From Candidatus Woesearchaeota archaeon (GTDB lineage Archaea > Nanobdellota > Nanobdellia > Nanobdellales > CAZNIQ01), in contig CAZNIQ010000026.1 in assembly GCA_964573185.1 (NCBI GenBank), positions 1 through 8,522 on the forward strand: a DNA stretch of 8,522 nucleotides, given 5' to 3'. Each line of letters opens with the position of its first letter. Positions within the stretch are counted from its first letter, which is position 1. The position numbers and the translations under genes were made by a program. The notes under the pieces were generated by a model that worked only from the letters and a program-made list of their open reading frames with translations, was not told the origin of the DNA and ran no database searches. Below, one piece after another: positions 1 through 8,522 of the stretch.

Positions 1-1768
1 ATTCTGGCTCTTTTTTAGAGGGGTCTTTATAAATAGTAAAATCAGCATAGCCCAATTTGATTGTTATACCTCTCTTAATTTCTTCAGAGTACGTATCTAC
101 CCACTTTCCAGTTAGCGCCTGAGTTAATGTAGTATTATGTACTAAAATGCCGTTTGCAAAGAAATTATGTGTTTTAGGAACATGTAAATCAATTATTTTT
201 CCTTTATAATATATCTTTTCAATTTTAGTAACTCTGTCATACCAAATATAGCCTAAATACTTTCTTTTAAGGTATAAATACAATTCTTTCTGTTCTTTTG
301 TTTTAATATGCTTTTTAACAAATTTGAAATATTTAATTAGCATAGAATATGTTATTCTCTTTTTCTTTAGAGCATCTCTAAATCCTAAATACCATGGTTG
401 CTTTTTAATTCCAGCTCTTAATAATCTATTTAATCTTTTGAATTCTTCTGGATTAATTGGAATACTATATTTTGTATATTTTCCAAATTTCTTTAACATT
501 TCTCTCAATTTCCTTTCTTTCTCTTTGGAAGCCAATCCAATTTTCTTAGCAAATAAATAAACGTTGTATCCGCTAATTACTAATTCATAATATTCTTTAC
601 CGTTAACAACTTTCTTTCTGATTTGAGATAGAATACCAAAATATAAAAGTAAGTGTTGTAAAATGATGATGTTTCTATAGCTTTTTTGTGTTACAATGAT
701 TTCTCCAGCTGTTTTGTTTACATCTGCTTCAAATGAGAAGAAATATCTTAAGAAAACTCTCTTAAGATTCCTTGGTAACTTAAGAATCCAATGTGGCAAT
801 TCTTTTGAAAGATTAAACTTTGCTTTTAGATATTCAACAAAGAGCTTTGAGTTTATATGATAATCCTTATCATTATAGTTAACAGTTATGACTTTAGAAT
901 GTAGCCATTGCAAAATTTCATCTAAAAGTTCTATTTCTTTCTTCTGACTTAAGCTAATCCTTTTATCAAATAGCGAACCTTCAGCATAAAACAAAGCCAA
1001 GAATTTTATTAAATTCTCGTCAATCTTAATGTCTTCAATTATTAAAGAATCTTGGTAGTTTTTGTTGATGATTATTACTTTATCTTTTAGATCTTCTAAT
1101 CTTATTTTCTCCTTAGCGAGGATTTTAACAAAAATAGATAGATCTTTGTAATTGCTTTTCCAGACTTTAAATGTAGATTGTATATCAGCTAAAGAAACGT
1201 GCATAATTGCTGCAAGAATCTTTGCTTCCTCTTCAGTTATTTTATCTTTCTCTAAAATCTTCTTGATATCCCTCCAATCTAGAACGATATACCCTTTTCT
1301 CTCTAAAATATCTCTCCACCTTGTATTTATGATTATTTTTTTAGAACTTTCCTTTAATTTTCTTAGAACTGCTACATAATCTCCTTCTTTTAAATCTTTA
1401 GCTTTAATCCAGACTAGATTTCCATCTCTATTTACTAAAAACGGATGATTTGGTGTTACAATAATTTCCTTTCCACTTTGCGTTATAATTTTATACATCT
1501 CTCCTTCATAATCTTCTATATAAACTAAAGGCTTTACCCTTTTTATTTTCCCATCTCTATCTAATGTATAAATGTAATATGGATATTCTTTTACTATATA
1601 ATTTTCTCCTTTCTCAATTGTTTTGTATCTCTCTGTTTCTTGAATTATTTCGTTCCCAGTTTTTATAGAATCATTTAGCAAAACAAAGCTTTCTGGATGG
1701 ATGCATTTTCCATGGTCTACATGGCCAATCATTACAATTGACAAGTCAGGATAGATTTTCTTTTTCAT
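1..1768 (-). CDS. eif2g: translation initiation factor aIF2 gamma subunit, N-terminal part (ORF open at left window edge), interrupted by an intein
   Basis: Hand translation of the minus strand from ATG at 1768..1766 is open all the way to position 2. The N-extein is [21 protein letters not shown] (G1/P-loop). After the intein the C-extein reads [44 protein letters not shown], matching the aIF2-gamma signature GHVDHGKTTL..ALTG.W....[13 protein letters not shown]. It is absent from the ORF track only because no stop lies inside the window. Confidence 0.85.
134..1705 (-). mobile_element. intein (524 aa) with LAGLIDADG homing-endonuclease domain inserted in the aIF2-gamma P-loop
   Basis: Starts with Cys (TGC, 1705..1703) directly after GHVDHGK. 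Block A is [11 protein letters not shown] and block B is IIVTPNHPF (TxxH). The two LAGLIDADG-type motifs are [10 protein letters not shown] (~1003..974) and [13 protein letters not shown] (~757..719). Block F is [16 protein letters not shown] and block G is ILVHN (Asn codon 136..134), followed by the +1 Thr (133..131). There are no internal stops or frameshifts. Confidence 0.85.
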
Positions 1769-1790
1769 TTTATTTCTTATGATTTAAGTT

Positions 1791-2861
1791 TTAAAAGGTA
1801 GTTCTTACTATTCTCTTTTCTTCATCTTTCTCGTAAATCTTTCCAAAGAAATGTTCACATGTCCATATGTTTGTTACCAAATGTCCTGTAAATTCAGAGG
1901 TCTGCAAAGCACCACCCACTAATCCTAAATACGGAATAAGATTATCCGCTAAATGATTATCTATAACACCATCTTTTTCTTCTTTTATAAATTTCTCCGC
2001 AGCTTCTTTACCTACCTCTTCAGCAGGTTTTCCTTTTTCTCCCCTAGCATCAGAACCTAAAACAACCCCATTCTCCCTTAAACCTACGATTGTGATAACA
2101 GAACCGGGAGATAAGGTTCTATCATACATCGTTATTTCAGCAATTTTTACATTATATTCTTTTTCTAAAATTTCTCTTGCAGCTTCTATTTGCCTTTCAG
2201 CAACTTTCCTTTTCTCTAGAACATCAGAAGCAAAAGAATAAACATATATTTCCTTTAAGGGCTTCTTTTCAGTTAAGTTATATCTTGGAACATTTTTTCT
2301 CAAATCATTTAAGAACTCCTCAACAGAATCATAGTTATCTCTTTTAAATCTTGGTTTTATTCTTACATATACCAAACCCCCTCCTTTTGGATAAAATCCT
2401 CTTCTCTGAACTTCAAATCTTAGATCATACACAAATCTTCTTAAATAAGGTAATATAACAAACCTAAAGTAATCTGCAGATGGAGACCAGGCAACATCGG
2501 TTCCACCTCTTATATAAAGCTCTGTTACTCTATTTGCGAAAAGCAAAGGTAAGATTACAGCTTGTAACAATAGAGTTATAGAACCAGCGGTGCCTATATC
2601 TATATTGTATTTTCCTCCTTCAATATAATAAGGATGGAATTCTACTTCTAAAGAACCGATTTCGATTCCTTTAGTTTTCGCACCTGAAATTTGAGCTAAG
2701 AATTTTAAAGCTGTCATATGCTGTGCTTTTAATCCAGGAGGATTTCTCCCTTTTCTTATGTTTATAATTTTAATAGGTTTCTTAAACAAGACAGATAATG
2801 CTGTAGCAGTTCTTACTATCTGTCCGCCAGCTTCCCCGTATCCTCCATCAATTATTAACAT
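1791..2861 (-). CDS. rtcA: RNA 3'-terminal phosphate cyclase
   Basis: 356-aa ORF. The N-terminus IIDGGYGEAGGQIVRTATALSVL matches the RtcA motif (IDGS.GEGGGQILRT..ALS). The DNHLADNLIPYL region contains the conserved His that is adenylylated in RtcA. Length is typical for the family. Confidence 0.9.
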   Translation of the reverse strand: MLIIDGGYGEAGGQIVRTATALSVLFKKPIKIINIRKGRNPPGLKAQHMTALKFLAQISGAKTKGIEIGSLEVEFHPYYIEGGKYNIDIGTAGSITLLLQAVILPLLFANRVTELYIRGGTDVAWSPSADYFRFVILPYLRRFVYDLRFEVQRRGFYPKGGGLVYVRIKPRFKRDNYDSVEEFLNDLRKNVPRYNLTEKKPLKEIYVYSFASDVLEKRKVAERQIEAAREILEKEYNVKIAEITMYDRTLSPGSVITIVGLRENGVVLGSDARGEKGKPAEEVGKEAAEKFIKEEKDGVIDNHLADNLIPYLGLVGGALQTSEFTGHLVTNIWTCEHFFGKIYEKDEEKRIVRTTF

Positions 2862-2896
2862 TGATTAAAGATAAGTTCTATATTAAAATAAGTTTT

Positions 2897-2945
2897 GTGA
2901 TGAACAACCGGATCTACTGAAAATGATGAAGGAGAGGAAAGCTGA
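2897..2945 (+). ncRNA. C/D box sRNA (2'-O-methylation guide)
   Basis: C box GUGAUGA 2897..2903; 13-nt guide ACAACCGGAUCUA; D' box CUGA 2917..2920; spacer AAA; C' box UGAUGA 2924..2929; 12-nt guide AGGAGAGGAAAG; D box CUGA 2942..2945, followed by UUUU. This is the canonical archaeal ~50-nt architecture. The reverse complement has no boxes. Confidence 0.85.
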
Positions 2946-2951
2946 TTTTAA

Positions 2952-3035
2952 TGGGCCCGCCGGGATTCGAACCCGGGACGGCTCTACGCCATCGGGGCCT
3001 CAGCCCGACCCCTTTGGCCGCTCGGGCACGGGCCC
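2952..3035 (-). tRNA. tRNA-Leu (anticodon GAG), type II with long variable arm, no intron, no encoded CCA
   Basis: Minus-strand read: GGGCCCG UG CCCG-AGCGGCCAA-AGGG G UCGGG CUGAGGC CCCGA UGGCGUAGAGCCGUC CCGGG UUCGAAU CCCGG CGGGCCC A. It has a 7-bp acceptor, a 5-bp anticodon stem, the loop CU-GAG-GC with G37, a 15-nt variable arm and a canonical T arm. The C10-G25 pair is slightly unusual. Confidence 0.9.
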
Positions 3036-3057
3036 AATAAACTTATAAATCCATTAC

Positions 3058-3067
3058 AATTTTTTAA
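3058..3067 (-). promoter_or_regulatory. TATA-like box for tRNA-Leu (TTAAAAAATT on minus strand, -32..-23 from tRNA +1)
   Basis: AT-only decamer at the distance expected for an archaeal TATA box if transcription starts at tRNA nucleotide 1 (3035). The tRNA-Pro and tRNA-Met genes in this window show the same spacing. Confidence 0.4.
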
Positions 3068-3071
3068 CCTT

Positions 3072-3401
3072 ATGTACAATCATCCAGAAGAAAGACATTT
3101 AACCACAAAAATTGATGTTTTATTAAAAATAGCTGATATTTTATTTTTCTATAAAGAAGGAAAGGCTGATTTATCCAAAACAAAAAGAAGACTTGCCTTT
3201 TTAAAACCAATAGTTAAAAGAAAATGGCCCGAAGAGTTTGAAGAATTGTATAAGGAAATCGATAAGGCAAAGGAAATATTAGAAAAATATGATAAGGAAG
3301 CTTATGATAAATGGATCGAATATCTTAAAGAAAATCATCCAGAAGCCATTAAGAAATTAGAGGCAGAAACCAAAAGCTCATTATTAGCTTTCTTTAAATA
3401 A
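3072..3401 (+). CDS. hypothetical small K/E-rich helical protein with C-terminal PIP-box-like tail (KSSLLAFFK*)
   Basis: 109-aa ORF. TTATAAAT at 3043..3050 lies about -30..-22 from the ATG. The extreme C-terminus is SSLLAFFK, close to the FEN-1 tail QSNLLSFFK in the same window. I recognise no family. Confidence 0.6.
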   Translation: MYNHPEERHLTTKIDVLLKIADILFFYKEGKADLSKTKRRLAFLKPIVKRKWPEEFEELYKEIDKAKEILEKYDKEAYDKWIEYLKENHPEAIKKLEAETKSSLLAFFK

Positions 3402-3659
3402 TTTTTCAATTTCTTTTATCAATTGCTCTGGCTTAATTCCTCTTCTCATTAATTGCAAAGCTAATTTGCGAGCTTTCCGCATACATTTTTTATGAATTTT
3501 AAATTTAATTCCTTGAAATTCAAATTCCTCATACTCCTCTCCAGGTTTAATTTCCTCCCCACAAAACACACATTTGTTTTCAAATTGTTTTAAAGCTTCT
3601 TGCAATTTCTCCTTATTTTCTTTTTTAGAGAATAAATTTTTTATCCAACCAAATACCAT
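3384..3659 (-). CDS. hypothetical small protein with C-x2-C...H-x2-C zinc-ribbon-like motif
   Basis: 91-aa ORF. CVFCGEEI...KIHKKC suggests a C2HC metal site. It is divergent from fen across a 33-bp spacer, and its 3' end overlaps the 3072..3401 ORF by 18 nt. Confidence 0.55.
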   Translation of the reverse strand: MVFGWIKNLFSKKENKEKLQEALKQFENKCVFCGEEIKPGEEYEEFEFQGIKFKIHKKCMRKARKLALQLMRRGIKPEQLIKEIEKLFKES

Positions 3660-3692
3660 TAAAAATTAAAAGCGAAATTAAAATAAAGCTTT

Positions 3693-4742
3693 ATGGGGCT
3701 AGCCGAAATACGCAATTTAATAAAACCTGTAATTAAAGAAATAGAGTTAAGAAGCTTATCAGGGAAAATCATAGCTATTGATGCTTTTAACTATTTATAC
3801 CAATTCTTAGCAGCTATAAGGCAAGAAGATGGAACCCCTCTTAAAGATTCTAAAGGGAGGATTACGTCTCATCTTTACGGACTGTTTTATAGGACTATAC
3901 ATTTAATGGAAGAAGGATTAAGGCCTGTGTTTGTTTTTGATGGTAAACATCCTGAATTTAAAAAAGAAGAGCAAAAAAGGAGAGAAGAGATGAAAAAGAA
4001 ATTAGAGGAGAAATATAAGAAAGTTTTAGAATTAGGTATAAAGAAGGATTTGAGAAAATATGCTCAAGGTATTGTAAGATTAACTCCAGATATGGTTAAG
4101 GATGCTATGAGACTTTTAGATGCAATGGGTATTCCCTATGTTCAAGCACCTTCTGAGGGAGAAGCACAAGCGGCATATATGGCTAGGAAAGGAGATGTGT
4201 ACTCTACAGCTTCTCAAGATTACGATTCTTTGTTATTTGGAAGTCCAAGGGTAGTAAGAAATCTCGCAATTACAGGAAAAAGAAAAGTTCCAAGAAAAGA
4301 TATATATGTTGAAATAAAGCCGGAATTAATAGAATTGGAAGAAGTATTAAAATATCTTGGTTTAACTAGAGAACAGCTAATTGCTTTAGCATTGTTAATT
4401 GGAACAGATTATAATCCTGACGGTATTCCAGGTGTCGGGTTAAAAACCGCATATGAATTAGTTAAAAAATTTGGAAATAATTTTGAAAAGTTATTTGAAT
4501 ACGTAAACTGGAAAAAATACTATCCTGAATTAGATTGGAGGGAATTAATGGAATTCTTTTTAGATCCTCCCGTAACAGATAATTATAAGATAGAATTTAA
4601 AGAGCCAGATGAGGAAAAAATAATAAAGATTTTAGTTGAGGAGCATGATTTTAATGAACAAAGAGTTAGAAATGCTATTGAAAGGTTAAAGAGAGCTATA
4701 AGAGCGGGAGCACAAAGTAATCTCTTATCTTTCTTTAAATAA
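3693..4742 (+). CDS. fen: flap endonuclease 1 (FEN-1)
   Basis: 349 aa. The N domain reads GK.IAIDAFNYLYQFLAAIRQEDGTPLKDSKGRITSHLYGLFYRTIHLMEEGLRPVFVFDG. The I domain contains PYVQAPSEGEAQAAYM...STASQDYDSLLFG. The H3TH region is LIGTDYNPDGIPGVG. The C-terminus carries a canonical PIP box, QSNLLSFF. Confidence 0.95.
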   Translation: MGLAEIRNLIKPVIKEIELRSLSGKIIAIDAFNYLYQFLAAIRQEDGTPLKDSKGRITSHLYGLFYRTIHLMEEGLRPVFVFDGKHPEFKKEEQKRREEMKKKLEEKYKKVLELGIKKDLRKYAQGIVRLTPDMVKDAMRLLDAMGIPYVQAPSEGEAQAAYMARKGDVYSTASQDYDSLLFGSPRVVRNLAITGKRKVPRKDIYVEIKPELIELEEVLKYLGLTREQLIALALLIGTDYNPDGIPGVGLKTAYELVKKFGNNFEKLFEYVNWKKYYPELDWRELMEFFLDPPVTDNYKIEFKEPDEEKIIKILVEEHDFNEQRVRNAIERLKRAIRAGAQSNLLSFFK

Positions 4743-5066
4743 CATATTTTCGTTTTTAATTATTTTATATAACATTCTAATTCTTTCTTTTATTTTTGTT
4801 ATTAATTCTGTTTGAGCTTTCAATCTTCTTTCCTTTAATTTTTGAACAATATCAGAATACCCTAATTCTGAAGCTTCTAAGATTTTTTCATCAAGGTATT
4901 TAATATAATTTCTAAGCATATAAATATCTTTAACCTCAAAAATCATTGAAATCAAAAATTTCAAACTAGGGTCTTCAGTTCTCTGCGCAACAGCTTTGAA
5001 AACGTATTCATAATACTTTATTGCCCAATCTATCTGTTCCAGCATAAGATATCTTGTTGTCATCAA
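4725..5066 (-). CDS. hypothetical helical protein
   Basis: 113-aa ORF with normal-looking composition that starts MM at 5066. Its 3' end overlaps fen by 18 nt. No recognisable motifs. Confidence 0.5.
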   Translation of the reverse strand: MMTTRYLMLEQIDWAIKYYEYVFKAVAQRTEDPSLKFLISMIFEVKDIYMLRNYIKYLDEKILEASELGYSDIVQKLKERRLKAQTELITKIKERIRMLYKIIKNENMLFKER

Positions 5067-5149
5067 TGCTAAATGACATTAAATTTTTAAATGTCTTACT
5101 ATTCAGTGATTAACCATAAAATATAACTTTTAAGTTTAACAATGTATTA

Positions 5150-5200
5150 ATGATGAGGGGTGCTGGGATACCGAAAATGAGGTTTGAGCCCCCTGTCTGA
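5150..5200 (+). ncRNA. candidate C/D box sRNA with degenerate internal boxes
   Basis: Perfect C box AUGAUGA (5150..5156) and D box CUGA (5197..5200) lie 40 nt apart, giving a 51-nt unit like the two clear sRNAs. The internal boxes are degenerate: D' CCGA (5171..5174) and C' AUGAGGU (5177..5183). The guides GGGGUGCUGGGAUA and UUGAGCCCCCUGU are GC-rich in an AT-rich spacer. Confidence 0.55.
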
Positions 5201-5229
5201 TTTTTAACTTTTAAATCTTCTGATTTTAC

Positions 5230-7875
5230 GTGAAGGATTTCATAAAAGAAATATTAGAGAAAGACAAGGAAATAATAGTTAAATATGTTGAGTTTCCAGA
5301 GGAGCCACCAGTTTATTCTGATTTTAAGTTTAAAAATCAAGAGGTAAATGAATTATTGGATAAATTGGGATTTAAATTATATTTACATCAAGTACAAGCT
5401 TTGGAAGCTTTATATAATGGTAAAAATGTTATTTTAACTACACCAACCGCTTCTGGAAAATCAGAAGTCTTTAGATTATATATTTTAGATCTTTATTTAT
5501 CCGACAAAAGAAACACTTTCTTACTAATTTACCCCACAAGAGCTCTTCTCTACGACCAATATGAAAAATTAAAAGAGAGATATTCTTTGGTTAGAGACTC
5601 CCCAAAAATAGGAATTCTTTTAGGAGATCTAACTTCCTGGGAGAAACAAGAAATAATAAAACAAAAACCAAACGTTATCTTAACTACACCTGATACTCTA
5701 CATTTATTTATTTTAAAGAATCATCAAGATTTTTCATGGTTCTTCAAAAACTTAAGGTTAATAGTTATAGACGAGTTACATACATATAAAGGAGTTTTTG
5801 GAACAAATGCTGCTTATCTCTTTAGAAGACTCTTTAGATTATTGGATTATTACTATAAAAATAGAAATTATCAAATAATTTGTCTTTCTGCAACTTTAAA
5901 GAATCCTATTGCCTTTGCTGAAAAGCTTTTAGGAAAAGATAATTTTGTTTTAATTGATAAGAGCTTTCATAAAAAGCCTAAAAGATATTTATTGATTTTA
6001 GATCCATCTGAAAAATATAGCAATCCGTTTATTTATTTAAAGAATCTCACATTAGATTTGATAAAACATAATATAAAGTCTTTAATTTTTGTTGAAACAA
6101 AAAGACAGACAGAGAAACTTAAATTAATGTTCTTTGACACAAATCTTCTGAATTTAATTGAAGTATATAAAGGATCGCTAACTAGGAAAACCCGCAAAGA
6201 AATAGAGAGAAAATTCAAGGATAATGAACTTCTAATTTTATTTACAACTTCTGCTTTAGAGTTAGGTATTGATATTGGCGATGTACAATGTGTTGTTAAC
6301 TTTGGTGTTCCTCCAGATGGTTTATTTTCTTTAATTCAAAGATTCGGTAGAACCGCAAGAATAAAAGAAGGCCTTAATATTTTAGTTTTAAGAGAAGATG
6401 CTTTAGACGCTTATTATAAAGAAAATGTAGACGAGTTAATCGAAAGAATAAGAAAGAATTTAATAGAAGAAATACCCGTAAACCTTGAAAACCCCTTTGT
6501 TGTAAAAAAGCACCTATTATATTTAATTAATGAATTTAGAGCTTTGCCTCTAAATATTTTAACAGATTATGAAAAGAAGATTTTGGAGGAACTAAAGAAA
6601 GAAGGTTACGTTGGGATTAGAAAAAATTGGTTTACTAATGAAGAATACGCCTATTTAAAAAGGAATATAAGCTATTCCGGAATAAGGAACATTGGGGAAG
6701 AAACTTATTATATAATAAAATACTCTGAAAAAATTAAGAGAAGAATTTTAGAGAAAAATGAAAAAGATCTTTATAGATACATTCAATTCTTGAAAATAAA
6801 GGGCATCATTTTGGAAGAAACTGATAAAAAAATATTCTATGAGCAACTTTTACCGGGCATGATTTATTTTTCTTTAGGAAGGCTTTATAGAGTTAAGGAG
6901 CATTTACTCTTAGGAAAAGTTAACTTTGTTTTTGTAGAGGAGTTAAGAACTAAAGAACCTTTAGAAACTAAACCTTTGTACAAAGAAGATGTACACATTT
7001 TGGAGATTTATGATGAGAAAAAGGTATTTGGGATACCTGTTTATCTTGCTAAATTAAGAATTAGAAGAATTTATGAGGGTTATATTTTGAAGAAAATAAC
7101 TTCTGAAAAAGATGAATATAATTATATAGGAGAATTTCATATATATGATAATCCATATATTTATGAATTTGAAACAAAGGGTATTTTCTTAGTTTTGGAT
7201 GAAAATTTGAAGGAAATCGAAGAAGAAGAATATAATATGTTTATGAAAAAGTTAGATAAATATTTGAAGAAACATAAGTTGGAAAAATTAAAAGATTTGA
7301 TTTTAATGTTTGTAAATTCAATAGACAAAGAAGAATTATATAATAAATACAGGGGTGGCACCACTAAAAGAATAATCAGAATGATTGAAAATTTCCTATC
7401 TAGATTTGGATTGGACGTTAATAAACATAAGAAACTGATATTTTACATTAAAAAGTTAATAGATTCATATTATGGATTCCAGAGTGGTTTGCACGCAATA
7501 GAACATAATATAATTAAAATATCACCTGTTGTTACAAATGTTGATTCTAGAGAGTTGGGAGGATATTCTTATGAAAGATATAAGACACTATCAGAATCTT
7601 CAGAAGTATCTAAACAATTTTTAGATAAACCCGTTATATTTATTTACGAAGGATATGAAGGTGGTGTAGGATTGGCTGAAATTCTTTTTGAAAACATTGA
7701 AAAACTTTTAATTAAGAGTAGGGAAAGTTTATTTAAGTGTAAATGTCTTGATGGTTGTCCTAGATGCATTTTATCACCAAAATGTGGAAATGCTAACGAA
7801 TTTTTAGATAAATATGCTGGAAGATTGATTTATAAAAGGTTGTTTGGAAATATTAAAAACGGGGCCGTAGGCTAG
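5230..7875 (+). CDS. SF2 DEAD/DEAH-box helicase with C-terminal DUF1998 / MrfA-type zinc-binding domain (YprA/MrfA/Hel112-like)
   Basis: 881 aa. Motif I TTPTASGKS, Ia YPTRAL.YDQ, II DELH, III SAT, V TTSALELGIDIG, VI QRFGRTAR. The C-terminal region reads GLHAIEHNI...ELGGYSY...CKCLDGCPRCILSPKCGNANEFLDK (four-Cys cluster plus N..LDK). The start is GTG at 5230: an in-frame stop lies at 5221..5223 and the first in-frame ATG is about 300 codons downstream. Confidence 0.85.
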   Translation: MKDFIKEILEKDKEIIVKYVEFPEEPPVYSDFKFKNQEVNELLDKLGFKLYLHQVQALEALYNGKNVILTTPTASGKSEVFRLYILDLYLSDKRNTFLLIYPTRALLYDQYEKLKERYSLVRDSPKIGILLGDLTSWEKQEIIKQKPNVILTTPDTLHLFILKNHQDFSWFFKNLRLIVIDELHTYKGVFGTNAAYLFRRLFRLLDYYYKNRNYQIICLSATLKNPIAFAEKLLGKDNFVLIDKSFHKKPKRYLLILDPSEKYSNPFIYLKNLTLDLIKHNIKSLIFVETKRQTEKLKLMFFDTNLLNLIEVYKGSLTRKTRKEIERKFKDNELLILFTTSALELGIDIGDVQCVVNFGVPPDGLFSLIQRFGRTARIKEGLNILVLREDALDAYYKENVDELIERIRKNLIEEIPVNLENPFVVKKHLLYLINEFRALPLNILTDYEKKILEELKKEGYVGIRKNWFTNEEYAYLKRNISYSGIRNIGEETYYIIKYSEKIKRRILEKNEKDLYRYIQFLKIKGIILEETDKKIFYEQLLPGMIYFSLGRLYRVKEHLLLGKVNFVFVEELRTKEPLETKPLYKEDVHILEIYDEKKVFGIPVYLAKLRIRRIYEGYILKKITSEKDEYNYIGEFHIYDNPYIYEFETKGIFLVLDENLKEIEEEEYNMFMKKLDKYLKKHKLEKLKDLILMFVNSIDKEELYNKYRGGTTKRIIRMIENFLSRFGLDVNKHKKLIFYIKKLIDSYYGFQSGLHAIEHNIIKISPVVTNVDSRELGGYSYERYKTLSESSEVSKQFLDKPVIFIYEGYEGGVGLAEILFENIEKLLIKSRESLFKCKCLDGCPRCILSPKCGNANEFLDKYAGRLIYKRLFGNIKNGAVG
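7829..7837 (+). promoter_or_regulatory. TATA-like box TTTATAAAA for tRNA-Pro, embedded in the helicase coding sequence (-32..-24)
   Basis: Consensus-like archaeal TATA sequence at the distance expected if transcription starts at tRNA-Pro nucleotide 1 (7861). There is no non-coding DNA upstream of this tRNA. Confidence 0.45.
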
Positions 7876-7931
7876 CGGCAGGCTGCCGGGCTTGGGACCC
7901 GGTGACCCGGGTTCGAATCCCGGCGGCCCCA
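7861..7931 (+). tRNA. tRNA-Pro (anticodon UGG), no intron, no encoded CCA
   Basis: GGGGCCG UA GGCU AGCGGCA GGCU G CCGGG CUUGGGA CCCGG UGAC CCGGG UUCGAAU CCCGG CGGCCCC A. It has a perfect 7-bp acceptor, a 5-bp anticodon stem, the loop CU-UGG-GA with G37, a 4-nt variable loop and a canonical T arm. Nucleotides 1..15 overlap the helicase 3' end, including its TAG stop (7873..7875). Confidence 0.9.
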
Positions 7932-7935
7932 TTTT

Positions 7936-7984
7936 ATGATGATTCAACCGAATACTGAATATGATGAAGGAGCGGCGTCTCTGA
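7936..7984 (+). ncRNA. C/D box sRNA (2'-O-methylation guide), directly downstream of tRNA-Pro
   Basis: C box AUGAUGA 7936..7942; 12-nt guide UUCAACCGAAUA; D' CUGA 7955..7958; spacer AUA; C' UGAUGA 7962..7967; 13-nt guide AGGAGCGGCGUCU; D CUGA 7981..7984. It is 49 nt long, the same layout as the sRNA at 2897..2945. Confidence 0.85.
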
Positions 7985-7988
7985 AAGA

Positions 7989-8000
7989 TTTTTAAATTAA
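7989..8000 (+). promoter_or_regulatory. TATA-like box TTTTTAAATTAA for the tRNA(CAU) 5' exon (-32..-21)
   Basis: AT-only element at the distance expected if transcription starts at 8021, the first nucleotide of the tRNA. Confidence 0.4.
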
Positions 8001-8052
8001 AATTAGATCTTATTTTAAAAGCCGCCGTAGCTCAGCCTGGTCAGAGCGCCCG

Positions 8053-8442
8053 TGGCCGCCCCCGCTCCTTTCCTAAAACTTAAGAAATTAGCGGAAGAAA
8101 CAGGAATACACATAAGTAACGGTAGTATGAATATTTATTAAGCTAAAAGAATAAAAGCATAGTATTGTTTAAATATAAAGTATTAGAATTACCTTTGGGT
8201 AAAAAATTAAATATACGTATTCCAGAGATTTTACACAAGATGAAAAGCTAATGAAAAGAGAGGAAGAGCTATCTTTATCCAAGGATAGAATTTACAAATA
8301 CGTCAATTATAGGGAAAGATATAAGCTTAAAATAAGTGGCATGAGCAAGTAAAAGACGTTCTTCAAGAAAATAGGGGAGTTCTAATCCGAAATATTTAAG
8401 AAAGTATAAGCGGTTGTTTTAGTAGCGGGGGCGGCCGGCGAA
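8053..8442 (+). other. 390-nt interruption at tRNA position 30/31 (very long non-canonical intron, or trailer + spacer + leader of two adjacent tRNA half genes)
   Basis: Canonical BHB motif. The outer helix is 8054..8066 (GGCCGCCCCCGCU) paired with 8424..8436 (AGCGGGGGCGGCC), 13 perfect bp. The 3-nt bulges are CG|U (8051..8053) and AA|G (8441..8443). The 4-bp central helix pairs CGCC (8047..8050) with GGCG (8437..8440). The exon-side helix pairs GAG (8044..8046) with CUC (8444..8446). Cleavage after the second bulge nucleotide joins G30 (8052) to G31 (8443). Confidence 0.75.
8390..8400 (+). promoter_or_regulatory. candidate internal TATA-like box AAATATTTAAG upstream of the 3' piece of tRNA(CAU)
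   Basis: It lies about -34..-21 from 8421..8424 (AGUAGCGGGGG..., purine start of the GC-rich leader). This is the same spacing as the TATA-like boxes of the three tRNA 5' ends in this window. Confidence 0.35.
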
Positions 8443-8449
8443 GCTCATA

Positions 8450-8479
8450 ACCGTAGGACTTTCCCTAGGTTCGTGGGAA
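8450..8479 (+). other. 30-nt canonical tRNA intron at position 37/38
   Basis: The central helix pairs C32-U33-C34-A35 (8444..8447) with UGGG (8474..8477), including one G-U pair. The bulges are UA|A (8448..8450) and AA|A (8478..8480), followed by the anticodon-stem strand CCGGG (8481..8485). The intron-internal outer helix is weak (UAGG 8454..8457 with CCUA 8464..8467), so this is a relaxed BHB. Confidence 0.7.
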
Positions 8480-8522
8480 ACCGGGAGGTCCCGGGTTCAA
8501 ATCCCGGCGGCGGCATTAAATT

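Follow-up and report, generated by a model that had tools for sequence, protein, structure and literature searches.

The window studied here is a stretch of 8,522 nucleotides from Candidatus Woesearchaeota archaeon (assembly GCA_964573185.1, contig CAZNIQ010000026.1, positions 1 to 8,522). At its left end, on the minus strand, it encodes the beginning of the translation initiation factor aIF2-gamma. This gene is interrupted by what is very probably a canonical class-1 intein with a LAGLIDADG homing endonuclease, inserted in the P-loop (GHVDHGK|T) of the factor in a Nanoarchaeota-like archaeon. Jointly with this reading, and with the same good confidence, we assign the intein to an existing population of aIF2-gamma P-loop inteins with their Lhr/MoxR relatives, and not to the inteins of aIF5B.

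The N-extein consists of 21 amino acids (1706-1768, minus strand; ATG at 1766-1768). Its translation ends in …GHVDHGK, at the lysine of the G1 motif or P-loop. The intein occupies 134-1705 (minus) with 524 amino acids, from Cys1 to Asn524 (CIHPE…ILVHN), and is identified by PF14890, PF14528, an AlphaFold2 (AF2) model and Foldseek. The insertion point is therefore between Lys21 and Thr, GHVDHGK|T. The C-extein begins with Thr+1, and its first 44 codons (1-133, minus) are translated up to the contig end, which cuts it. The precursor frame has 0 stops in 589 codons, versus 25-65 in the five other frames. Given the base composition, such an open frame of 589 codons has P ~2e-26. An earlier note on this DNA had described a 524-aa insertion at 134-1705 after a 21-aa N-extein, and the minus-strand translation returns exactly these coordinates. 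It had also feared that automated annotation may miss the gene. This did not happen, as the ENA gene caller called a 589-aa partial open reading frame (ORF). The gene is absent from the ORF list supplied with the window because that list leaves out ORFs running off the source end.

The splicing domain matches Intein_splicing of Pfam (PF14890; E 3e-27, 95.7 bits, cutoff 35.8). The N-terminal Hint lobe (residues 1-118; 1352-1705, minus) is hit by TIGR01445 intein_Nterm at 1e-11 and forms a beta-strand lobe in the model. It includes block A (1676-1705) and block B (1433-1459). Cys1, the class-1 N-terminal nucleophile, stands directly after GHVDHGK. Block B presents the Thr-x-x-His pattern in VTPNHPFLV (residues 83-91, Thr85/His87). 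The C-terminal Hint strands (residues 487-524; 134-247, minus; TIGR01443 intein_Cterm, 5e-8) contain block F (149-196, …HNFFANG) and block G (134-148). The latter reads ILVHN|T, that is, a C-terminal His-Asn with Thr at +1. Alignment A1 shows no variation at C1, H87, P88, Y500, D506, P510, N514, F515, H523 and N524. All the splicing blocks listed in the earlier note (C1, block B, HNFFANG, VHN and the +1 Thr) are present, together with its two acidic LAGLIDADG motifs. Class-1 splicing activity is predicted from these residues.

The endonuclease core lies between both Hint parts (residues 209-390; 536-1081, minus) and matches LAGLIDADG_3 (PF14528; E 7e-13, 49 bits, cutoff 22.5). Motif 1 (residues 232-245, …FYAEGS; 971-1012) carries Glu242, and motif 2 (residues 317-330, …SFEADV; 716-757) carries Glu326. 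In alignments, both glutamates fall on acidic residues of the P0009, P0010 and Lhr inteins, and on the positions of the catalytic Asp in the TliVMA intein. Two helical modules flank the core. The first (residues 130-206; 1088-1318, minus) is placed between the Hint lobe and the core and shows five helices in the model. An equivalent segment is found in large aIF2-gamma and Lhr inteins, and we presume a helix-turn-helix-like, DNA-recognition module. The second (residues 394-484; 254-526, minus), also helical in the model, comes after the core and has no Pfam family match. It may serve for DNA binding or as a linker. Judged by its motifs, the intein looks endonuclease-competent. Rfam and default ARAGORN gave nothing associated with the intein region.

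The AF2 model was computed from an alignment of 12 sequences and has good confidence (mean pLDDT 88.5, pTM 0.88). Its core shows two alpha-beta-beta-alpha-beta-beta-alpha repeats in pseudo-dimeric order. When compared with the PDB by Foldseek, intein-encoded homing endonucleases rank first. The best is TliVMA (7qss; E 1e-22, TM score 0.77 on the target), followed by PI-PkoII (2cw7), PI-PfuI (1dq3) and then PI-SceI. A PDB sequence search with the intein agrees with this result. The core reaches TM scores of 0.65-0.69 against I-DmoI, and the Hint part fits mini-inteins with a root-mean-square deviation of ~2 Å over ~120 residues. TliVMA/PhoVMA (7qss, 7qsu, 7qst), PI-PkoII and PI-PfuI share the same Hint and LAGLIDADG fold (E 1e-22 to 3e-20), and the VMA inteins, like this one, lie in a P-loop nucleoside triphosphatase (NTPase). 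However, these solved endonucleases have 17-19% identity to the window intein and other hosts, and the window intein has the extra helical modules 130-206 and 394-484.

The host gene was identified from its spliced extein. This fragment of 65 amino acids scores 94 bits to TIGR03680 eif2g_arch in NCBIfam, versus 54 to SelB and at most 27 to EF-Tu/EF-1alpha, although it is too short to reach the whole-protein cutoff of TIGR03680. SelB and EF-1alpha are ruled out as hosts by hidden Markov model (HMM) scores below that of aIF2-gamma. The HMMs, the model and the spliced extein together bear out the earlier description of an intact-looking class-1 LAGLIDADG intein in the aIF2-gamma P-loop. An intein-free orthologue of 402 amino acids (P0001) aligns flush across the junction, with 62/65 extein residues identical. 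The N-extein is identical in 21/21 amino acids, and the C-extein differs only at +3, +4 and +6. P0001 is a full aIF2-gamma with PF00009 (GTP_EFTU), PF03144 (GTP_EFTU_D2) and PF09173 (eIF2_C), and it aligns end-to-end with P. abyssi eIF2-gamma (1kk0; 483 bits). Its gene, on a 124-kb contig (L001, assembly GCA_054017035.1), directly follows that of RtcA, and the window has the same order. There, RtcA (RNA 3'-phosphate cyclase; 1791-2861, minus; Pfam RTC 4e-74) is 22 nucleotides upstream of the aIF2-gamma start. It shows 93% amino acid and 87% nucleotide identity to the RtcA of L001. Because the loci share ~87% of their DNA and 93% of the RtcA protein, the two organisms are sister species and not strains.

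The splicing mechanism of class-1 inteins is established. Here, Cys1 would undergo an N-S acyl shift, and Thr+1 would attack the thioester (transesterification). Then Asn524 would cyclise, aided by His523 and the block B residues Thr85/His87, and an O-N shift would leave a seamless aIF2-gamma of 402 amino acids. Because the insertion parts the P-loop Lys from Thr, the precursor would be unable to form the G1 motif or to bind GTP. Since aIF2-gamma is essential, splicing must be efficient. For homing, the endonuclease and the two helical DNA-binding-type modules would recognize and cut the P-loop codons of an intein-less aIF2-gamma. The intein would be copied in by repair at the cut, and flanking extein sequence would be dragged along. 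A divergent tract of 42 nucleotides at the junction would be the likely scar of such an event, and at most an indirect sign that intein-less alleles are cut.

To place the intein among others, we made an exhaustive HMMER search over 1.84 billion cluster representatives and inspected the best 150 of 2377 matches. The best match was P0008 (7e-50), and identity to any known intein does not exceed ~34%. Nine of these best 150 are aIF2-gamma proteins with an intein at GHV(D/A/E)HGK|C…HN|T(T/S)L (P0009, P0010, P0011, P0013, P0014, P0046, P0059, P0126 and P0140). They fall into at least 9 protein clusters (50% level), and IMG labels such proteins 'translation initiation factor 2 subunit 3'. A word-indexed search with the whole precursor gave 7 matches and no same-site intein; this result is misleading, the query being low-complexity and rich in K/E/I.

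With the degenerate pattern GHV[D/E/A]HGK-C, we also scanned GTDB species, each represented by one genome, and sorted the loci, at least 119, by N-extein context. Among the matches listed, at least 31 are aIF2-gamma, at least 63 are IF2/aIF5B and 25 are chance matches. The aIF2-gamma loci come from Nitrososphaerota/Thaumarchaeota, Bathyarchaeia, Geothermarchaeota, Iainarchaeum, Aenigmatarchaeota and unclassified archaea. Those of IF2/aIF5B come from Thermococcus, Methanocaldococcus, Archaeoglobaceae, Desulfurococcales, Caldarchaeum, Micrarchaeota, Woese-/Pace-/Nanoarchaeota and three Patescibacteria. The earlier note believed that aIF5B inteins lie at the homologous GHVDHGK|T, and these loci, which include Thermococcus, Methanocaldococcus and Archaeoglobaceae, prove it right. 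Its proposal of a new insertion allele fails, as at least 31 species-representative genomes, and also at least 9 protein clusters, have an intein at this very position. The aIF2-gamma P-loop site is not new; the window intein is a divergent new example.

The aIF2-gamma inteins (P0009, P0010, P0014, P0046; L004, L023, L029, L032, L082, L120), from Nitrososphaerota, Iainarchaeum and other metagenome-assembled genomes (MAGs), have the same host and the same insertion point as ours. The large ones share its order of Hint, helical insert, LAGLIDADG core, helical module and Hint. They differ in identity (~27-34%) and length (~636-641 aa versus 524 aa), and the window intein branches outside them in the neighbour-joining (NJ) tree described below. 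In the scan, sizes fall into mini-inteins of 150-206 aa and full inteins of 635-641 aa. All the stages of the homing cycle are represented at this site, because both forms occur. P0014 and P0046 are full-length inteins with Arg, Lys or Ala at the LAGLIDADG acidic positions, so by their sequences both endonucleases are evidently decayed. As a separate observation, these two and L005, L012, L017, L046, L068, L092 and L118 form a decay series, from intact, to catalytic residues lost, to endonuclease-free. Nitrososphaeria carry in aIF2-gamma mini-inteins of 150 aa without endonuclease.

Our literature search found no explicit published description of aIF2-gamma inteins. Among the NCBIfam matches to the window protein there is no curated model for an intein-containing aIF2-gamma, whereas aIF5B has one (PRK14845). 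The group COG0532 we take to be InfB/aIF5B. The one mention that our search met with is a row in Table 2 of Novikova et al. 2015 (PMC4760082), which gives 'aIF2', 15 inteins, COG0532 and 'IF-2 subunit gamma'. Because label and COG0532 disagree, this row is ambiguous, and its 15 inteins may belong to aIF5B, to aIF2-gamma or to a mixture of them.

We compared the spliced coding sequence of the window with L001 to look at the insertion point. Nucleotide identity is 81% in the N-extein and 85% in most of the C-extein. In contrast, the first 24 nucleotides after the junction have 46% identity, with 8/8 codons different and 3 amino acid changes. The divergent tract (110-1723, minus, a span that includes the intein) consists of the last 6 N-extein codons (1706-1723) and the first 8 C-extein codons (110-133). 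These 14 codons, 42 nucleotides, hold 18 mismatches, 13 of them in the 8 C-extein codons. The RtcA alignment (1071 nucleotides) has at most 7 mismatches per 24-nucleotide stretch. By codon permutation over 422 codons, the divergence has p ~0.002 for 8 codons and ~0.001 for 14. A tract centred on the insertion point suggests homing-associated recombination (co-conversion), or else a replacement during precise intein loss in the other lineage, from which it would also be expected. The junction peptides are TTLTQALTG in the window and TTVVQSLTG in L001, and Val at +3 occurs in only 2/112 sequences.

The host lineage is otherwise free of the intein at aIF2-gamma. The 120 closest aIF2-gamma clusters are all at most 484 aa long, thus intein-free. 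With P0001 on L001, they supply the intein-free relatives that the earlier note had proposed to look for. The intein is sporadic in this lineage because 120/120 of the closest clusters are without it, which fits a horizontal acquisition. The nearest named aIF2-gamma relatives (55-58% identity) are from Nanoarchaeota, Ca. Nanopusillus and Nanopusillaceae, then Woesearchaeota and Pyrococcus. Metagenomic relatives reach 63-67%. The window has 30% G+C with G+C-rich tRNAs, and among solved structures the Pyrococcus enzymes come nearest to its FEN-1. The host is an AT-rich, Nanoarchaeota-like archaeon, probably a thermophile. The G+C content at third codon positions (GC3) is 0.227 in the intein and 0.21-0.22 in host genes. 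A recent foreign arrival recognizable by composition is ruled out, as the GC3 of the intein equals that of the host.

A possible, if rather doubtful, explanation is that the intein still splices but its endonuclease is inactive. The intein would be a vertical resident, retained since an imprecise loss destroys an essential P-loop. Its GC3 is fully ameliorated to the host, and with no close relative above 34% identity there is no sign of recent spread. The same decay is seen in other aIF2-gamma inteins (P0014, P0046 and the 150-aa mini-inteins of Nitrososphaeria). Yet both catalytic Glu, the two-repeat core and the flanking helical modules are intact and confidently modelled. The junction tract suggests recombination after the split from L001, and the closest relatives are all without the intein.

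It is improbable that the intein has been co-opted as a redox- or temperature-gated splicing switch that limits active aIF2 for translation initiation. The case is circumstantial: a precursor whose nucleotide-binding loop is split by the intein must be inactive, and the catalytic Cys1 is a potential redox sensor. In a passage of Novikova et al., the clustering of inteins in P-loops is argued to hint at a retained function (PMC4760082). But nothing in the sequence is specific to regulation, and the closest relatives manage without the intein. Moreover, what is seen, an endonuclease still retained and a scar at the junction, agrees with simple selfish mobility.

The integrity of the host gene depends on more than one contig. 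The parent contig (ENA ERZ27262635, k141_256262, 9125 nucleotides) ends at base 1 of the window. A contig of the same ENA assembly (L123, k141_187095) starts at residue 78 of the mature aIF2-gamma and runs with no gap, frameshift or stop through the natural end at 402. This part (325 aa) is identical to P0001 in 313/325 positions, and the genes for a PIN-domain protein and a DRG GTPase follow on L123, as on L001. A JGI contig (L124) likewise has the C-extein, from residue 89. The ~12 codons between the two contigs, unassembled, correspond to CYTTKPCENCEP in P0001. From assembly, synteny and identity, we infer that the window contig and L123 are linked. This would give a precursor of about 926 aa and, after splicing, a protein of about 402 aa. 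The same intein is found in an independent JGI metagenome (L122), with 99.8% identity over 2812 nucleotides and 0/5 mismatches in the intein. The earlier note asked whether the downstream extein is truncated or frameshifted; residues 78-402 on L123, without a stop, favour an intact gene.

The interrupted gene is very probably functional. That it is a pseudogene or a dispensable duplicate, and not the functional aIF2-gamma, we regard as very improbable. The gene is on two contigs, the assemblies of this population break in or near it, and the 12-codon gap remains between its parts. Nevertheless, the 589 + 325 codons read through without a stop or frameshift, and all the splicing residues are intact. 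The gene is at the orthologous RtcA…PIN-DRG locus. The extein has 96-100% protein identity to the orthologue versus ~85% in DNA, indicating purifying selection.

The contigs of this population in ENA, JGI, NCBI and Logan all break within or shortly after the intein-bearing aIF2-gamma. The break points (window 1, L123 1, L124 1, L122 2812 and P0179) correspond to mature residues 65, 78, 89 and ~96 and to intein residue 258. This recurrence suggests strain microdiversity or intein polymorphism.

The affinity of the intein was studied with excised inteins. By phmmer, it scores 140-174 bits to large aIF2-gamma inteins (best P0009 and L023) and 78-151 bits to P-loop inteins of Lhr-type helicases (PTGSGK|C…HN|T). 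To large aIF5B inteins of Archaeoglobaceae, Thermococcus and Methanocaldococcus it scores 64-85 bits, and 40-47 to two others. We also built an NJ tree of 500 columns with MCM inteins as the outgroup and 200 bootstraps, with support from explicit bipartition counts. The window intein forms one clade with aIF2-gamma, Lhr and MoxR inteins in 87% of the bootstraps. It groups with aIF5B inteins in 0/200, and the latter are monophyletic in 85.5%. No aIF5B protein is among the best 150 matches from the 1.8 billion representatives. The C-extein flank TTLTQALTG is of the aIF2-gamma type, while that of aIF5B is TTLLDKIR, and the N-extein is without the aIF5B context R-x-P-I-V…LGHVDHGK.

The inteins of aIF5B/IF2 (Pyrococcus, Thermococcus, Methanocaldococcus; PRK14845) do resemble ours: they are class-1 LAGLIDADG inteins at GHVDHGK|C…HN|TTL of a paralogous GTPase. 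They differ in the separate clade and in the C-extein. A recent ectopic homing from this paralogous P-loop (target peptide GHVDHGK|TTL), as the earlier note had suggested, is highly improbable and disfavoured by the bit scores, the tree, the best matches and the co-inherited flank, despite the at least 63 genomes with aIF5B inteins at the homologous site, the transfers between P-loops or paralogues proposed in eukaryotes (PMC10710043), and a best NCBIfam match to PRK14845 (intein-containing aIF5B; 1.4e-32, from the P-loop on), which arises because NCBIfam has no model of an intein-containing aIF2-gamma.

As an observation apart, MAGs of Patescibacteria, Uhrbacteria and Saccharibacteria (L010, L070, L071) have a Candidate Phyla Radiation IF2 with inteins of 529-546 aa at GHVDHGK|C. 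This is the same P-loop position as in archaeal aIF5B, and these inteins cluster with DPANN aIF5B inteins in the NJ tree.

The relationship with helicases points to another kind of history. The Lhr-type (Ski2-like) helicase inteins (P0008, P0012, P0053, P0045, P0021) are inserted after the Walker A Lys, PTGSGK|C…HN|T. They share domain architecture and motif patterns (…SEG…, FLRWFFSLEAE) with the window intein. Their host is non-homologous, and the target DNA is common only at the GK|T codons. Any relationship implies an ancient host switch and not allelic homing. The window intein is equidistant from the aIF2-gamma and the Lhr-helicase P-loop inteins and basal to both, and MoxR inteins are nested alongside. 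An older exchange between the non-homologous P-loops of aIF2-gamma and Lhr is possible, and Anaeramoeba offers a published precedent for it (PMC10710043). We propose, only tentatively and as a rather unlikely case, that this lineage passes from the Walker-A/P-loop of one archaeal NTPase to that of another, non-homologous one, with an independent capture by aIF2-gamma from a helicase-resident ancestor, or the reverse. A transfer from P-loop to P-loop, or between paralogues, was proposed in Anaeramoeba (PMC10710043). If true, archaea would have in this lineage a counterpart of transfers that have lately been proposed for this eukaryote alone.

Several observations weigh against a mobile class-1 intein of the aIF2-gamma population in an intact gene. 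First, the window intein is basal in the clade of aIF2-gamma, Lhr and MoxR inteins, where 89.5% of NJ bootstraps unite the others and exclude it. The identities in the tree are 27-29%, so the deep branching order should be taken cautiously. An aIF2-gamma allele lineage and an independent capture are both compatible with this position. Second, outgroups give no polarity for the junction tract, as both alleles differ from the clade consensus TTLAKxxTG. The positions +4 to +6 of aIF2-gamma are naturally variable, which tempers the argument from the tract. Third, the amelioration of GC3 argues against a very recent arrival from a donor of different composition. Finally, the gene is divided between a contig with its N-terminal part and one with its C-terminal part, ~12 codons being unassembled, and we infer linkage and intactness there.

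A second intein was observed in this population. On L123 (7206-8513, minus), an ATPase of the VirB11/T2SSE type carries a mini-intein of ~150 aa (PF14890, 2e-28; junction …AHN|TSLLTAL). Its block B region has 54% identity over 52 aa to the aIF2-gamma intein of the window. The orthologue of the sister species (L001 17432-19651, minus; 739 aa) has no intein domain listed. It is the second difference in intein presence or absence between the window population and the sister species.

The rest of the window presents other features. An interrupted tRNA gene is found at 8021-8515 (plus strand), with a 5' half GCCGCCGTAGCTCAGCCTGGTCAGAGCGCCCG…, a 3' half …GGTCCCGGGTTCAAATCCCGGCGGCGGCA and ~400 AT-rich nucleotides between them. 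The insert is closed by a perfect 13-bp GC helix, GGCCGCCCCCGCT / AGCGGGGGCGGCC. Default ARAGORN and Rfam missed this gene, and ARAGORN with introns allowed gives tRNA-Pro(GGG) with a 419-nucleotide intron. A CTCATAA loop lies in the '3' leader', so the true anticodon and the intron boundaries may differ. The gene resembles the split or giant-intron tRNAs of the Nanoarchaeum type.

Two motifs are similar to C/D-box small RNAs (sRNAs). One (2920-2950; ATGATGA…CTGA) adjoins tRNA-Leu (2951-3036). The other (7935-7990) comes after tRNA-Pro (7861-7931) and has the full C/D'/C'/D order (ATGATGA…CTGA…ATGATGA…CTGA). Neither has an Rfam match at the gathering threshold. Three small ORFs lie between tRNA-Leu, FEN-1 and a DEAD/MZB helicase (3072-3401, plus; 3384-3659, minus; 4725-5066, minus). 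They encode 109, 91 and 113 aa, and all were called by the ENA gene caller, with no Pfam match. The 91-aa product has a CxxC…HxxC spacing, which suggests a zinc ribbon.

The understanding of inteins is unchanged by this intein. What it contributes is a well-preserved and highly divergent intein endonuclease at a P-loop insertion site that genome data show often and that, as far as our search went, the literature hardly describes. It may be a source of a splicing domain and of a new LAGLIDADG enzyme that is thermostable. The intein-free orthologue of the sister species (87% nucleotide identity), the junction tract and the same allele in two independent metagenomes make a natural comparison set. 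With this set, homing and co-conversion could be studied at the locus in a DPANN-like thermophile.

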